Assembly: GCA_013166835.1 (NCBI GenBank)
Contig: JABLTI010000004.1
Coordinates: 1-60,035 of the forward strand
DNA length: 60,035 nt
DNA from: Promethearchaeati archaeon
Lineage (GTDB): Archaea; Asgardarchaeota; Heimdallarchaeia; JABLTI01
Direction of reading: 5' to 3'
Shown one piece after another: positions 9,968 to 15,175 of this stretch. Below the pieces are notes generated by a model, which was not told the origin of the DNA, did no database searches, and saw nothing but the letters and a program-made list of their open reading frames with translations. The first letter of the stretch is position 1. Each line of letters begins with the position of its first letter. The translations under genes and the position numbers were made by a program.

Positions 9968-10039
9968 ATAAGGAAAAGGACTATATTAGAATCTGAAAAG
10001 TGAAAAAAAGAAAATTAGGTTGATTTTGTCGTTAGAAAA

Positions 10040-10768
10040 TTACTCTGCTTCTTTTTCTATTCGTTCCGACTTGTCACCAAACTTCCGTTCTTCTTTTGCA
10101 AGTAATCGTTTGATATTATCTCGATGTCTGAATAAAATGAAAATTCCTGCTAGCAATCCACCAACCATTAAGGGTATACTTGTTATTATATCCAATCCCA
10201 TTATGTAACGTGTCTCCAGTAATATGAAGATTGGCAATGTTGGAGTGGTGACTATATTTGCTAAGGATGTGTATCTTGTTGTAAACACTACTGTAAACCA
10301 CACGATTGCTAATCCTGCAGCAGTTACTGGGACAAAACAAATGAATACTCCAGCAGTTGTAGCCATACCTTTACCACCTTTGAAACCTAACCACACTGGA
10401 TAGTTGTGTCCTAGCACAGACATTATTCCTGCTAATACTACCATTGCTTGAGGTAGAGGTTCTGTAAATCCTAACGTGTACACAAATCTTGGTCCTGCAG
10501 GCGGATTAATTACTACTAATCCCACTATTAATCTTGCAGCCCAAGCAACAACTCCTCCTTTTAGGACAATATCTCCGATAATCGTTAGTATTGCAGCTCG
10601 TTTGCCTAGTAAGCGATAAGCGTTCGAAAATCCAGTATTTCCACTCCCATGATCCCTAATATCTATCCCTTTCGTTATCTTTCCTAAAACCCATCCTGTT
10701 GGAAAGCTTCCAACTAAGTAACTACCTACAACTAGCAACACATATGTTGCCCAATCTGGAAATGCCAT
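10040..10768 (-). CDS. plsY: acyl-phosphate:glycerol-3-phosphate acyltransferase PlsY
   Basis: YLVGSFP, DIRDHGSGNTGFSNAYR, GHNYPVWLGFKGGKG, YTSLA and RHRDNIKRL, covering all PlsY motifs. Confidence 0.93.
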   Translation of the reverse strand: MAFPDWATYVLLVVGSYLVGSFPTGWVLGKITKGIDIRDHGSGNTGFSNAYRLLGKRAAILTIIGDIVLKGGVVAWAARLIVGLVVINPPAGPRFVYTLGFTEPLPQAMVVLAGIMSVLGHNYPVWLGFKGGKGMATTAGVFICFVPVTAAGLAIVWFTVVFTTRYTSLANIVTTPTLPIFILLETRYIMGLDIITSIPLMVGGLLAGIFILFRHRDNIKRLLAKEERKFGDKSERIEKEAE

Positions 10769-10835
10769 TTTTATTACTACTTCCTGTTTTCATCTACTTT
10801 TGTATTGTTTCTTAAAAGAGTTCTTATTATACGCA

Positions 10836-11684
10836 CTACTTTTTCATATAAGTGAAGAATAGTGATCCTGGACCTAAATGTGCTCCTACTACTGGTCCTA
10901 CTAATCCAGTATATTGCGGTTTGCACCCGAATGTTTCTTCTAATCGAATTTTGAACTGATTCGTTACATCTGGCATGTCACCATGTGTGAGAGCAACTAA
11001 TGATGTCGCATCTAACCCTTCCACTTTCATTTGTTCGATTATCCAATCCATTGCTCCCTCTCGACCTGGCACTGTTGCTAAACTATCTGTTTCTCCTTCA
11101 GTTACAGTTAATATTGGTACTCTTCCTAGTAATTGTCCAACTAATCCCCTTGCTCTCCCGATTCTTCCTCCCCTCACCAAGTATCTCAATGTGCTTGGGA
11201 ACCCAAGTACTACTACTTTTTCAATTGCTTCGTCTATGATTGCACAGACTTCATCAATATTCTTCCCTTCATTTACGGCCCAAGCAGCTTTTAATATTAT
11301 AAGTCCAAGTGAAGCTCCAGTTGTCAAGGAATCATACACTCGAATATCCATATGTGGGAGCATGCTTCTCGCTTGTTTTGCTGACTCAATTGTTAAACTC
11401 ATTAAACGAGAAATATGTATGGATATAATTGTCTCAGCTTCGTCTGCAGCATCCTCATATGCTTCAAAAAACAAAGCAGGTGAAGGAGGATTTGTTGATG
11501 GAGTATCCTTCAGTTTTGGCATTTTATCATAAAATTCTTCAGGTGTCAGATCTATTCCTGCAGTAAAGGTCTCATCATCCATATAAACCTTCAATGGAAC
11601 TACAATAATACCTAATGCTTCTATTACCTCATCTGGTAAATCGCAGGTACTATCTGATACAATTTTAACTTTTTTTAGAGACAT
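10836..11684 (-). CDS. fakB: DegV-family fatty-acid binding protein (FakB)
   Basis: IVSDSTCDLP, STNPPSP, YLVRGGRIG, VVGAHLGPG. Confidence 0.92.
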   Translation of the reverse strand: MSLKKVKIVSDSTCDLPDEVIEALGIIVVPLKVYMDDETFTAGIDLTPEEFYDKMPKLKDTPSTNPPSPALFFEAYEDAADEAETIISIHISRLMSLTIESAKQARSMLPHMDIRVYDSLTTGASLGLIILKAAWAVNEGKNIDEVCAIIDEAIEKVVVLGFPSTLRYLVRGGRIGRARGLVGQLLGRVPILTVTEGETDSLATVPGREGAMDWIIEQMKVEGLDATSLVALTHGDMPDVTNQFKIRLEETFGCKPQYTGLVGPVVGAHLGPGSLFFTYMKK

Positions 11685-11799
11685 TTATTATCTTATTCCA
11701 TTAAAGTCTGCAGCTTTAGCACTTATCCTCGAATAAAAGTTTTTAGTTAAAAAAAGGTATTATTTCCACCCAATTTCTTGGGGGAAATTAGATTTTAAA

Positions 11800-12741
11800 T
11801 TAGCTTGCTTCTTCTACGAACAAGAATTCTCTGTGTTGTTTTGTCATATCATCGATTTTAAGTCGAGATATTGCGCCGTGTTGTTTGCATTGCTTTATGA
11901 CTGCTTTTGGATCATTTGTGTGTATGTGAACTCTTATCATATCATCATTCTTTGCTACAACAAGTGATCCGCCCATTTTTCCTAGAAATTCTCTTGCGAA
12001 TTCAGCTGTCACATCTACTGATTCTATGATAAATTCAGTACAGAATTGGAATTCATCATCTTCTTCAGTGTCTTGTACTATTGCTTCAACTTCGACTGCT
12101 TCGCCAACATCATCGATGTCTTCATTCTTGTAGGCTTTTATCCATCCTTCCATTATGTAGACGAATCCTTGACCTCCAGCATCTACTACTCCTGCTTTTT
12201 TGAGCACAGGTAATAGCTCTGGTGTTTTCTCAAGGGTTCCTTGTGCTGCATCAAATGAAGTATCAAGCATTTCGATAAAACTTGAACCATTTTTTGCAGC
12301 CAAATTAGCTGCTTCAGCAGATTTTCTAATAACAGTTAGGATAGTTCCTTCTTGCGGATTAAGTACCGCTTCATATGCTTTTGCTGCTCCATCAACAAAA
12401 GCTTGTGAGAATTCGTTTGGTCCTATGTCCTCAAAATTATTCAAAGAACTGCTAAAACCACCAAAAAACTGTGATAATATAACGCCTGAATTACCGGTTG
12501 CTCCCATAAATGATCCCCGAGCAATTAGTTGAGCTGTTTCTTTTGCAGAGGAAGAATTATTATTTTCTAGTTCTTCAATGATTGCTTCAACTGTTAGATA
12601 CATATTTGCTCCGGTATCACCATCAGCAACTGGAAAAACATTTATTGCATTTAAGTGTCTACGATACTTTTTCAGTAGATTTGCAGAAGCTTGCATCATG
12701 TTATTTAATAATTTACCACTAAATAATTGGAGTGTTGCCAT
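11800..12741 (-). CDS. fakA: DAK2-domain fatty acid kinase subunit A (FakA-like, short form)
   Basis: LNAINVFPVADGDTGANM, GNSGVILSQ, EGTILTV, GVVDAGG, FCTEF, VHIHT. ATG at 12741 follows an AGGAG RBS. Confidence 0.88.
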   Translation of the reverse strand: MATLQLFSGKLLNNMMQASANLLKKYRRHLNAINVFPVADGDTGANMYLTVEAIIEELENNNSSSAKETAQLIARGSFMGATGNSGVILSQFFGGFSSSLNNFEDIGPNEFSQAFVDGAAKAYEAVLNPQEGTILTVIRKSAEAANLAAKNGSSFIEMLDTSFDAAQGTLEKTPELLPVLKKAGVVDAGGQGFVYIMEGWIKAYKNEDIDDVGEAVEVEAIVQDTEEDDEFQFCTEFIIESVDVTAEFAREFLGKMGGSLVVAKNDDMIRVHIHTNDPKAVIKQCKQHGAISRLKIDDMTKQHREFLFVEEAS

Positions 12742-13170
12742 TTTTTTATTTCTCCTGTTAATTTTTAATAAAAGACTGTTTTTAACCAACTACTAAGGAT
12801 TATTTAACTATGTCGAATTTAAACATTTCTTTTACGACTAAAAAATACTACGAAAGCGCACTAATTACCGCGAAATTCGTATACCTATAAGCGAAGTAAG
12901 ACGTAATTACAGCAAATTGGAGCATCAAAGTGCGAATATCGCTAAAAATTATGCGATAAATTTTGTTTTATATCTTCTTTTTTATTAATGAAAAACAATA
13001 ACATATTATTTGTTTACTGAATTTTTAAGACAAATTATGAATAAATGAAACATATTTAGTTTTAATTAAAGATTTGTTTGTGGTTCATTTAGAAAATGAC
13101 TTTGAAAGTGGAGCATATTATGAAAATTTTAACAAATCTTTTGAATTAAATTCATAGATAATGTGTTATT

Positions 13171-14032: not shown

Positions 14033-15175
14033 TTATGCGAAAACATCATATGTACTGGCTTCTCTAGCAATGATTGGCGCCAAATAATCGATTTTCTTAG
14101 TAAATATTGGATTCATGCTTTTCGCTATTGTTACGATAATGCCCATTTTTTCACTATTAAACATAGGTGCAACGGTGCTAATATCACCTTTTGAGACTTC
14201 TTTTCTCATTGCTAATTCCGCTAAAATACTTGCACTTGTTATAATCTCGCTGATTTTGTCATTTACTTTCTGTACAACTGCACTTTCATCAATACCACGT
14301 AGGCTTGCTAAGAGGTTTTTACAGAATTTGCTTTGTTCTCCACCTGTAACCTTACCTTTTATAAGATCAACAATAACTGCATCGTCATATGCTTTTGCTA
14401 TGTTTCTTTTGGTACCGATTAAATCAGCTTCGACAATTTGGTTGGTCCAAAAAACTTTCTTCAAGTCTTTATGTGGAGCAAATATCTCAAGACTAGCTAT
14501 TGCAATTTCCGTCATAACTTCGTCACCAGTAACGACAACAGGTCGACCCATCAGAATTGCCAAAATCGCTTTATCTAAATCTTTCTTTATTACTTTATTT
14601 AGAAATTGCATACTACCCTTTGTTTTTGATTTTGTGATGGTAATTTTTCTTGCTGCATAAAATTCTTCAATTTCCACTTTATATGATTGAACATCTAGAA
14701 GATCATCAATTTTTTGTTTAACTAAATTTGGCATTGATTTTCCAAAAACGTATCTTTCTCTTACTAAATTACTAACTCGTTTGCATTGTGTTGATAAAAA
14801 TGGTGCTAAACGATACATTTGCAGTTGTTCTTTTGCGTCCATTAATATAATCAAAGAGCATGACCTCTGACCACCTCTTAATTTTGGGGCAGGTATCGTA
14901 AAGAAATAAGAAAAAGCAATTTTTTCCTGTTTACTAAAAGGTATTATAGATTCACCACAAAGTTCACTTTTATTATCTGTGTGTAGAGATAAGGAACCAA
15001 TCATTACCTTAACAGCTATTTCGCCTGCAGAATGATCATCCAAATGCTTGTGATAAGCGCTTATTGGTCCTATTGCATCATCAAATGTTGCAAAACACAC
15101 TGAGATTGAATTATTTTGTTGCAATTTATCATTACCACTTTTATTCAATTCAAGAAGTTGTGGATTAAATGTCAT
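14033..15175 (-). CDS. longin/uDENN + DENN-like domain protein
   Basis: N-terminal FATFDDAIGP uDENN/longin pattern, LRGG...LIIL, core LAILMGRPVVVTG. Confidence 0.6.
   Translation of the reverse strand: MTFNPQLLELNKSGNDKLQQNNSISVCFATFDDAIGPISAYHKHLDDHSAGEIAVKVMIGSLSLHTDNKSELCGESIIPFSKQEKIAFSYFFTIPAPKLRGGQRSCSLIILMDAKEQLQMYRLAPFLSTQCKRVSNLVRERYVFGKSMPNLVKQKIDDLLDVQSYKVEIEEFYAARKITITKSKTKGSMQFLNKVIKKDLDKAILAILMGRPVVVTGDEVMTEIAIASLEIFAPHKDLKKVFWTNQIVEADLIGTKRNIAKAYDDAVIVDLIKGKVTGGEQSKFCKNLLASLRGIDESAVVQKVNDKISEIITSASILAELAMRKEVSKGDISTVAPMFNSEKMGIIVTIAKSMNPIFTKKIDYLAPIIAREASTYDVFA

Follow-up and report, generated by a model that had tools for sequence, protein, structure and literature searches.

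A conserved kinase, DegV and PlsY gene cluster as a putative acyl-phosphate pathway in Heimdall-group Asgard archaea

Three neighbouring genes of a Heimdallarchaeia archaeon, encoding a FakA-like kinase, a DegV/FakB protein and a PlsY acyltransferase, probably form a functioning acyl-phosphate pathway in Heimdall-group Asgard archaea, fed by free fatty acids. We analysed these genes in a 60,035-nucleotide stretch of contig JABLTI010000004.1 (the window), and their domain content, conserved catalytic and ligand residues, synteny and co-distribution were directly observed. Asgard PlsY has been cited for years in the lipid-divide debate (Villanueva 2017, as cited elsewhere; passages of Manoharan 2019, Coleman 2019, Sun 2021, Wu 2022 and Rieche 2026). 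Acyl-phosphate, its only known donor, lacked a visible source, because archaea are described as being without PlsX (Coleman 2019, in excerpt) and PlsX over the cut-off was found in 0 of 61 class genomes here. The conserved, class-wide link between PlsY and the kinase would supply this donor on paper. Earlier publications have described PlsY and PlsC in Asgard genomes (excerpts of PMC6737245, PMC6431249, PMC13400652 and PMC8813620), and the passages available from this literature do not name FakA, FakB or DegV as the acyl-phosphate source. What is new here is Fak as a candidate donor source, the separation of canonical from clamp-less PlsY, the DegV expansion and the enzyme gaps. In place of a vague "bacterial-like gene" stand three small, cloneable proteins with testable activities and stereochemistry.

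Locus, origin and distribution

The trio spans positions 10040 to 12741, and its genes are co-oriented on the minus strand in the ORF listing. The features of the locus are as follows.

11800..12741, minus strand: fakA_NL, putative fatty-acid-kinase catalytic subunit with a Dak2/DhaL ATP-binding domain and a FakA middle (Zn/dimerisation) domain
11749..11785, minus strand: C-rich/G-rich inverted repeat followed by T7, just past the fakA stop; possible archaeal terminator within the cluster (sequence reading)
10836..11684, minus strand: degV/fakB, putative fatty-acid-binding protein and conserved kinase partner (PF02645, TIGR00762)
10040..10768, minus strand: plsY, putative acyl-phosphate:glycerol-phosphate acyltransferase, the genome's only canonical copy (TIGR00023, similarity to 5XJ5)
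10003..10009, minus strand: T7 run 3' of the plsY stop; possible end of the transcription unit (sequence reading)

The three gene families, their order and their coordinates agree with an earlier note on this DNA. The genes are separated by 115 and 67 nt in a conserved order, and transcription may end at the T7 run behind fakA, leaving two separate transcripts. Contigs from four RNA-library runs of four studies covered fakA at 90–100% identity (span 11735–12739), a weak hint of expression. In the same runs degV and plsY had no contig cover, which is uninformative on their expression, and transcript ends are not readable from such contigs.

The source genome is 84.75% complete with an estimated contamination of 6.79%, and the GC content of the trio (0.37–0.40) is slightly higher than that of its neighbours; both would suit bacterial contamination or a chimeric join in the metagenome bin. 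However, the flanking genes are archaeal (RPA, Cdc6, TFIIB, EMG1, PAC2, arcTGT, Lsm and HerA/Mre11/Rad50), and an independent Heimdallarchaeota assembly (L030) carries the same archaeal genes in the same order on both sides (RPA-...-nfo-fakA-degV-plsY-HTH-GT87). A third assembly (L031) keeps nfo-fakA-degV-plsY-GT87, with nfo and GT87 immediately flanking the cluster, and RPA is matched close to where the locus ends. GC3 of the trio (0.22–0.26) matched that of the flanks (0.19–0.31). Homologues at 72–97% identity carry Heimdallarchaeota or Asgard names, with contigs that in some cases reach 1.55 Mb, and all three proteins were found on same-size contigs in at least 10 assemblies. Because gene order is kept in both assemblies and GC3 is like that of the flanks, the contig is not chimeric, as the earlier note had expected. 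Together with the tree below, these results contradict contamination, which we regard as vanishingly improbable.

In the tree, all 19 Heimdall FakA sequences lay on one side of a branch from 75 bacterial FakA sequences, and the genes occur across the class; the trio is therefore not a one-off bacterial import. No bacterial group was placed with support within the Heimdall clade or as its neighbour, so that neither a recent Firmicute or Chloroflexota donor nor any other can be named from these trees, which came from "quick" searches, have long branches, are unrooted and give no direction of transfer. Judged from these comparisons, the module is class-wide and old, and not a recent Firmicute transfer. 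The link to eukaryogenesis suggested in the earlier note is indirect, since PlsY is described as without eukaryotic homologs (PMC5700162, in excerpt). The available passages of Coleman et al. report no specific archaeon–eukaryote relationship for these genes.

Among 151 Asgard genomes, FakA_M was found in 21 and DegV over the cut-off in 25, every one a member of the class to which the window belongs. The DegV and PlsY families agreed in presence or absence in 28 of 28 class genomes; four class genomes that have both, among them the only other member of the genus in this sample, gave no FakA_M match. Another family of the class also has fakA beside degV, with a PlsY-family ORF directly next in one genome (G139), and by match coordinates FakA_M lies about 1 kb from PlsY in three genomes (G102, G130 and G136). 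Since no PlsX over the cut-off was found in the 61 class genomes, Fak is the only visible source of acyl-phosphate. The earlier note had reported plsC and plsX as absent from the window, and neither was found in the rest of the 84.75%-complete genome.

The two-domain kinase and its DegV partner

The kinase comprises 313 aa from its ATG; the ORF extends to a TTG at 12789, yet homologues begin at the ATG in the alignment. Pfam searches detected Dak2 (PF02734, 146.7 bits, profile positions 1–173 of 174) and the FakA-like middle domain FakA-like_M (PF21645, 85.1 bits). The Dak2 motifs DGDTG and GNSG were invariant in the alignment, as were C234, H272 and H274 of the middle domain in both 14 and 28 aligned sequences. 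The protein matched PDB 7W7H chain A with 217 bits (residues 7–322) and the FakA_N structures 8VIP and 7RM7 with 157 bits, and it covered positions 1–299 of the 530-position YloV model. FakA-like_C (PF13684) was absent from the kinase, and its sole match genome-wide was a 23-bit cross-hit on a DegV gene. Scores below the NCBIfam cut-offs (NF038248, 253.6 vs 975; TIGR03599, 339.9 vs 396.1) fit this missing C domain. The 44 closest protein clusters (72–97% identity, 312–328 aa) contained PF02734 and PF21645 only, and every aligned Heimdall kinase stopped where the L domain would give way to the C domain. None of the Heimdall homologues examined has the C domain on which FakB docks, and the short form is the rule in the class. 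The intact motifs claimed previously are present, in that Dak2, middle-domain, DegV and PlsY residues are kept, but the kinase is not a whole FakA.

By its domain content, the kinase is a natural "FakA_NL". In excerpts of work on S. aureus (PMC9136124), the engineered FakA_NL is catalytically active with a Km for FakB1 of 0.99 µM against 0.09 µM for intact FakA, activity also returns when the N and L domains are supplied as separate proteins, and C240, H282 and H284 are required. The equivalents of these three residues are invariant in the archaeal kinase. Both proteins thus share the domain content for which, in the same excerpts, the C domain is unneeded for catalysis; the S. aureus form was made in the laboratory and has an 11-fold poorer FakB1 Km, whereas the archaeal form is natural, conserved in the class and may dock DegV directly. 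FakB is bound by the C domain of FakA in both solved systems. Since the archaeal kinase has no C domain, DegV would dock directly on its N and middle domains, as DhaK pairs with DhaL, or would bind with lower affinity. In DhaK–DhaL, one subunit holds the substrate and the ATP-binding DhaL (Dak2) domain of the other acts on it, and a free DegV on FakA_N would repeat this layout; Shi et al. described FakA_N/FakA_C as a DhaK–DhaL mimic. The archaeal case differs in that the predicted substrate holder is DegV, Dak1 was not found in the genus and there is an extra middle domain. A natural two-domain kinase and a family with both domains as separate genes may bear on the mechanism of FakA and on its evolution from a DhaL-like ancestor.

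The Dak2 protein might instead be the DhaL subunit of a dihydroxyacetone kinase that lies beside DegV incidentally, and weak NCBIfam matches to DhaL and glycerone kinase (31–41 bits) point that way. However, no Dak1/DhaK turned up among 11 genomes of the genus, and the Dak2 domain is accordingly not read as a dihydroxyacetone-kinase subunit; the FakA-specific middle domain with its Cys/His/His set is present, and the linkage to DegV and PlsY is conserved. We consider this identity very improbable and retain the fatty-acid kinase reading.

The DegV protein (282 aa) scored 241.6 bits against PF02645 (cut-off 27) and 257.3 against TIGR00762 (cut-off 99.7), and matched the solved DegV/FakB structures 2DT8 and 4X9X with 107–125 bits. 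Across 28 sequences T64, S92 and R174 were invariant and H269 nearly so, and by sequence alignment these four residues fall on the corresponding motifs of 2DT8 and 4X9X. In S. suis FakB2, T61, S93 and H264 bind the carboxyl group and R170 lies at the tunnel entrance (PMC10848957). The score against the FakB1 equivalog NF038249 was below its cut-off (127.7 vs 350), and by sequence the window protein is a DegV protein outside the Firmicute FakB1 orthologue group. Its orthologues grouped as a separate clade (SH-aLRT 100), and of the 16 other DegV genes of the genome that the tree included, 15 fell outside it. Eighteen DegV genes were counted in the genome; Firmicutes have two to four.

PlsY, its paralogues and the acceptor

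PlsY (242 aa) scored 163.3 bits against PF02660, exceeded the curated cut-off of TIGR00023 (153.6 vs 137.2) and matched Aquifex PlsY (PDB 5XJ5) with 103 bits. In the Aquifex enzyme, as excerpted from PMC5700162, Ser35, Arg45, Lys104 and Asn180 form the phosphate clamp and Ser142 contacts the glycerol 2-OH. The clamp is kept in the archaeal protein as S42, R52, K133 and N218. At the acyl-phosphate site, His92 corresponds to H121 and the Gly102–Gly105 loop to G131-G132-K133-G134, and Thr41 is replaced by Ser48; the same excerpts give about half activity for Aquifex T41S. Among the 2-OH ligands, His177 is kept as H215 and Ser142 is replaced by Asn171.

The genome contains 10 PlsY-family genes, and the clamp is kept in the window's PlsY alone; all nine paralogues lose clamp residues, and the five that were scanned scored 81–113 bits against TIGR00023, under its cut-off. 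In another Asgard class, PlsY-family proteins of about 400 aa were without the glycerol-phosphate clamp (6 sequences from 3 genomes), so that, within this sample, the combination of canonical PlsY and Fak marks the Heimdall class. Archaeal "PlsY" genes fall into two groups, canonical clamp-keepers and a larger clade predicted to be unable to bind glycerol phosphate in the same way, which changes how gene-presence tables should be read.

The substitution at position 142 bears on the stereochemistry of the acceptor. Asn occupied this position in 18 of 18 canonical Heimdall rows, against Ser in 35 of 37 bacterial-like rows, and the residue contacts the 2-OH at the chiral centre. An archaeal PlsY that prefers sn-glycerol-1-phosphate over G3P, giving an ester lipid on the archaeal backbone, would accord with this change, with the use of both stereoisomers by bacterial PlsY in vitro (PMC13400652, in excerpt) and with strong G1PDH matches in 49 of 49 genomes of the class's other families. 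However, position 142 varies in bacteria (Ser 52.6%, Ala 33%, Gly 5.2%) and S142A retains about 32% activity, so the change may be neutral, and no G1PDH was found in 12 of 12 genomes of the window's family. We therefore hold a preference for G1P to be unlikely. Asn142 was also seen in two other PlsY proteins.

The enzymes around the acceptor were sparse. PlsC, G1PDH, GpsA and PcrB-type GGGPS were not found in the 12 genomes of the window's family, and two GDPD phosphodiesterases were the only visible glycerol-phosphate sources in the genome. Several candidates were rejected. The single FGGY kinase scored 364.8 against a GlpK cut-off of 590 and passed the XylB cut-off, and a "GpsA" match on another contig (C197) was a PanE/ApbA ketopantoate reductase. 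Three "G1PDH" matches of about 30 bits covered only the first two-thirds of the model in proteins of 394–447 aa and were taken as generic iron alcohol dehydrogenases; jackhmmer with two Heimdall G1PDHs retrieved nothing from the genome's ORFs. Two weak "GGGPS" candidates were a HisA/F-type protein and a triose-phosphate isomerase. The PcrB model is itself weak, reaching about 50 bits where it matched in another family of the class and giving no match in both single-contig genomes of a sister family, and it may have missed a divergent GGGPS. The genome search for plsC, gpsA, glpK and egsA proposed in the earlier note found none of them, and the complete route to lysophosphatidic acid that it had envisaged was only partly visible: GpsA and G1PDH were not found, the FGGY kinase was XylB-grade and PlsC was found in 0 of 12 family genomes.

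The proposed pathway and its products

In the pathway that we favour, DegV would capture a free fatty acid as a FakB-like protein, and the two-domain kinase (FakA_N plus FakA_M/L) would phosphorylate the bound fatty acid with ATP to yield acyl-phosphate. Membrane PlsY would then move the acyl group onto glycerol phosphate, giving a product of the lysophosphatidic-acid type. Because no PlsX was found in the class and the kinase is the only visible donor source, the supply would be free fatty acids, scavenged or recycled. Every activity is predicted from sequence, as are the nature and stereochemistry of the glycerol-phosphate acceptor and what becomes of the product.

Compared with the Firmicute FakA/FakB–PlsY route (S. 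aureus, S. suis 7W7H, 7RM7, 4X9X; Aquifex 5XJ5), the likeness lies in the three families, the predicted chemistry and the conserved residues. The archaeal system differs in its host, in a kinase without FakA_C, in about 40–43% identity to the bacterial proteins, in lacking a PlsX or PlsC partner, in T41S and S142N of PlsY and in its 18 DegV genes. Several observations count against the pathway, namely the kinase without a FakB-binding domain and below the FakA and YloV cut-offs, DegV below the FakB1 cut-off and the two PlsY substitutions, as well as the failure to find GpsA, a GlpK-grade kinase and G1PDH for the acceptor and PlsC for a diacyl lipid. The T7 run behind fakA, the four class genomes with DegV and PlsY but no FakA_M match, and the incompleteness and contamination of the genome also weigh against it. 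In the available text of PMC13400652, moreover, the one lipid analysis cited for a cultured Asgard archaeon detected archaeal phospholipids alone.

A more far-reaching reading, to which we give little credence, is that the family, in which G1PDH, GpsA, PlsC and PlsX were not found, builds a substantial part of its membrane by salvage, combining glycerol phosphate from phosphodiesters, fatty-acid capture by 18 DegV proteins, the two-domain kinase, the PlsY with its lineage-specific Asn at the putative chirality-reading site and nine clamp-less PlsY-like enzymes for other acceptors, including a PlsC-type second acylation. If true, the membrane lipids of a living archaeon would be ester-linked and might be mixed or heterochiral.

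Somewhat less doubtful, though still improbable, is that acyl-phosphate is made mainly for uses other than bulk membrane glycerolipid, the canonical PlsY product being minor. The PlsY-like paralogues would then acylate minor lipids or sphingoid or sterol-like alcohols or serve remodelling, or the system would buffer or detoxify fatty acids. The 18 DegV genes and nine clamp-less paralogues fit such uses, as do the neighbours of the latter: two adjoin a DegV and an alpha/beta-hydrolase, one of these also a neutral ceramidase, and others lie beside APH-type kinases, a 3-beta-HSD-type dehydrogenase and an EXPERA/EBP protein. The lack of PlsC in the family points the same way. CarS was found in 11 of 12 family genomes and five UbiA-family genes in the window's genome, so isoprenoid lipids are probably still made. 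Against non-bulk use, the window's PlsY keeps the full phosphate clamp, passes the equivalog cut-off and is the copy whose linkage to the kinase persists in two families of the class.

The gene cluster and its archaeal setting

The genome under study is a metagenome-assembled genome of 3.56 Mb in 260 contigs (84.75% complete, 6.79% contamination), and the contig has a GC content of ~0.32. Three ORFs, all on the minus strand, fill positions 10040-12741, and their Pfam and NCBIfam matches bore out the co-oriented fakA-fakB-plsY genes described in an earlier note on this DNA.

Genes of the kinase-DegV-PlsY cluster
11800-12741, minus strand: FakA-like kinase (Pfam Dak2, 146.7 bits; FakA-like_M, 85.1 bits)
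10836-11684, minus strand: DegV (Pfam, 241.6 bits)
10040-10768, minus strand: PlsY (PF02660, 163.3 bits; NCBIfam TIGR00023, 153.6 against a cut-off of 137.2)

The interpretation in the earlier note holds in part: a kinase-DegV-PlsY pathway is plausible, but its kinase is short of one domain, its acceptor supply is unproven and it has no second acyltransferase. Beyond the fakA stop lie a GC-rich inverted repeat and seven consecutive T, and plsY too is followed by a T7 run; "conserved gene cluster" is a safer term than "operon". Contigs of four RNA-library runs from four studies covered fakA at 90-100% identity, which gives only a weak hint of expression because such libraries can contain DNA.

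The genes around the cluster are plainly archaeal, as had been claimed, and include RPA, Cdc6/Orc1, TFIIB, EMG1/Nep1, PAC2, archaeosine TGT, an Lsm protein and HerA-Mre11-Rad50. In their source records, the nearest homologues of the kinase, DegV and PlsY carry the names Heimdallarchaeota or "Asgard group", except for two with bacterial or other archaeal bin names; this places the organism in the Heimdall class of the Asgard archaea. At L030, a locus of another Heimdallarchaeota assembly, the kinase is 86% identical to that of the window and ten genes stand in identical order (RPA, two unknowns, a folliculin-like protein, nfo, fakA, degV, plsY, a 575-aa HTH protein and a GT87-like protein), and L031, from a third assembly, keeps the order nfo-fakA-degV-plsY-GT87. 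The third-position GC of fakA, degV and plsY (0.22-0.26) lies inside the range of the flanks (0.19-0.31). The cluster is neither a chimera nor a recent import, in line with the earlier view that contamination was unlikely.

In the protein database, the runs of orthologues spanned 72-97% identity for the kinase, 57-99% for DegV and 51-95% for PlsY, beyond which identity to bacterial homologues drops to ~40-43%. In a 94-row tree of the kinase N and L domains, a single branch (SH-aLRT 87) split 19 Heimdall from 75 bacterial sequences; this was a quick, unrooted search with two long Heimdall branches, and its bacterial rows were the best matches to the archaeal profile, not a balanced sample. The phylogeny proposed earlier as a check thus yielded a Heimdall-bacterial split for the kinase that is compatible with one old origin, but it named no donor.

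The kinase and its proposed DegV partner

The kinase aligned to the first 299 of the 530 positions in the YloV model, with scores below both NCBIfam cut-offs (FakA and YloV). A genome-wide profile search detected no FakA-like_C domain in the kinase or elsewhere in the genome. In the alignment, the archaeal kinases end just past the DDMxxQH motif, whereas bacterial FakA runs on into the linker and C domain, and the 44 closest protein clusters were all 312-328 aa long with identical two-domain content. By its domain content, the window kinase is a natural FakA_NL, a form named after a truncation construct of S. aureus FakA. The FakA identity assigned earlier therefore stands for the N and middle domains with their invariant C234, H272 and H274, but not for a whole FakA, as the C domain is missing.

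These three residues are the equivalents of C240, H282 and H284, which are needed for S. aureus FakA activity in the account of Subramanian et al. (PMC9136124). The same account describes S. aureus FakA_NL as active, although its Km for FakB1 is ten times poorer, and reports that separately supplied N and L domains restore activity. Since S. aureus FakA_NL is active and the required residues are invariant here, catalysis should survive the loss of the C domain. FakA_C is presented by Shi et al. (PMC10848957) as a DegV-fold module that binds FakB and whose pairing with the N domain of the second protomer resembles that of DhaK and DhaL. By analogy, we infer that a free DegV may take the place of FakA_C in Heimdall archaea and dock directly on the kinase.

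The Thr, Ser and His that bind the carboxyl group (T64, S92 and H269 in the alignment) and the Arg at the entrance (R174) are all present in the cluster DegV (residue roles as described in PMC10848957). Its orthologues formed their own clade in the DegV tree (SH-aLRT 100). The genome carries 18 DegV, 10 PlsY-family and one Dak2 gene, and 15 of the 16 other DegV genes placed in the tree formed a separate clade (SH-aLRT 98), which indicates a lineage-specific expansion.

In 10 genomes of the sister family (f2), FakA_M is encoded on its own, as a protein of ~99-124 aa, for example at the loci L110 (G026:C1:57702-58022) and L111, and no Dak2-type ORF was found within ~7.5 kb of it at these two loci. 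The Dak2 domain occurs there in separate proteins of ~196-261 aa, two per genome in 14/18 genomes, and the kinase of this family is naturally split. Two short N+L kinases of Chloroflexota (~314-330 aa) are nested among full-length Chloroflexota sequences, and short forms arose independently in that phylum. Proteins of ~600 aa with a DegV-matching region after the N and L domains were seen in KSB1, Pseudomonadota and Desulfovibrionaceae; the loci of these fusions and of the short forms are L039, L056, L095 and L066, L087. On a Saccharibacteria contig (L108:5956-9045), a fakA-degV-plsY-like cluster shares the gene order of the window; unlike in the window, its FakA is full-length and its PlsY-like protein lacks the glycerol-phosphate clamp.

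PlsY and the surrounding lipid genes

Aligned to Aquifex PlsY (PDB 5XJ5), with residue roles as described by Li et al. (PMC5700162), the window PlsY keeps the glycerol-phosphate clamp (S35, R45, K104 and N180), His177, His92 and the glycine loop. The intact motifs noted earlier were thus confirmed, with two changes, Thr41 to Ser and Ser142 to Asn. Ser142 is described as one of two ligands of the glycerol 2-OH; the site is reported as Ser in 52.6%, Ala in 33% and Gly in 5.2% of sequences, and the S142A protein as retaining about a third of activity (Li et al., PMC5700162). Asn occupied site 142 in all 18 canonical (clamp-keeping) Heimdall PlsY rows and in 2 further rows grouping with them, and Ser in all 35 other bacterial-like rows. 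Asn142 cleanly marks the lineage, its meaning being uncertain.

The distribution of the three components was surveyed in 151 Asgard genomes, 28 of them in the window's class.

Distribution of the components in 151 Asgard genomes
FakA_M: 21 genomes, all in the window's class
DegV, over cut-off: 25 genomes, all in the window's class
PlsY family: 41 genomes, 25 in the class and 16 in two other families

Presence or absence of DegV and of the PlsY family agreed in 28/28 class genomes, and PlsX over cut-off was found in 0/61 class genomes. In the genomes sampled, canonical PlsY and the kinase system occur together, and no further source of acyl-phosphate came to light.

The genes plsC, gpsA, glpK and egsA had been named for a genome search. 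PlsC was found in 0/12 genomes of the window's own family and 0/18 of the sister family, and in 30/31 remaining class genomes. A G1PDH-grade PF13685 match was found in none of the 12 own-family genomes (best 41 bits) and in 49/49 other class genomes (E <= 1e-22). The GpsA C domain was likewise found in 0/12 own-family genomes, as was PcrB-type GGGPS, whose model is weak across the class; CarS was present in 11/12. The window's genome holds five UbiA-family genes, two GDPD phosphodiesterases and one FGGY kinase, which is xylulokinase-grade, not GlpK-grade. With GpsA, G1PDH, a GlpK-grade kinase and PlsC not found in these searches, the acceptor supply is undemonstrated, so the complete route to lysophosphatidic acid was not upheld, and the diacyl step is unaccounted for.

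Villanueva (2017) is said to have reported Asgard homologues of PlsY and PlsC. Such homologues are already in print (PMC6737245, PMC6431249, PMC9723677, PMC8813620, PMC13400652), and bacterial PlsY is described as accepting both G3P and G1P (Rieche et al. 2026, PMC13400652). Full-text literature searches gave no report of an Asgard fatty acid kinase, though supplementary tables may hold these genes under generic names.

Paralogues and their neighbours

Each of the other nine PlsY-family proteins of the genome has lost clamp residues; five of them were compared with TIGR00023, and all five fell below the PlsY cut-off. Three of the nine keep S35, R45 and K104 with N180 changed to Asp or Glu; the other six lack S35, K104, H177 and N180, five of them also R45. 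All nine keep His92 and the glycine loop. In a 76-row tree these paralogues stood apart from canonical PlsY and joined two sister-family paralogues, ~400-aa PlsY-family proteins of another Asgard class and one Saccharibacteria protein (SH-aLRT 95). Genomes of that other class (family f13) carry tandem arrays of such ~400-aa proteins at L144 (G083:C106), L149 and L150; their PlsY-like part lacks the clamp (S35 to Thr; H177 to Ile, Val, Ala or Phe), and is followed by ~150-200 additional C-terminal residues.

On contig C203 of the window's genome (L120:1874-7108), a 659-aa neutral/alkaline ceramidase (PF04734, 447 bits) is encoded in a co-oriented cluster with a DegV, a 291-aa alpha/beta-hydrolase and a PlsY-like protein that lacks the clamp; the group resembles a module for lipid hydrolysis and re-acylation. 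Another group of PlsY-like, alpha/beta-hydrolase and DegV genes lies on C74 (L123:1664-4252). Families better known from eukaryotic sterol or lipid metabolism adjoin PlsY-like or DegV genes at L121:3837-6101 (C80), L124:4422-7392 (C28) and L159:1437-3196 (C122); for example, one PlsY-like gene is preceded by an EXPERA/EBP protein and an APH-type kinase, another has a 3-beta-HSD-type dehydrogenase on one side and a choline-kinase-like APH on the other, and a DegV overlaps with a DUF1295/steroid-reductase-like protein. In the window itself, a 380-aa protein (14033-15175, minus strand) matched Folliculin at 22.3 bits, below the cut-off of 23.3; at 88% identity in L030 it is conserved above its neighbours, and it may be a eukaryotic-signature protein of the longin/DENN type.
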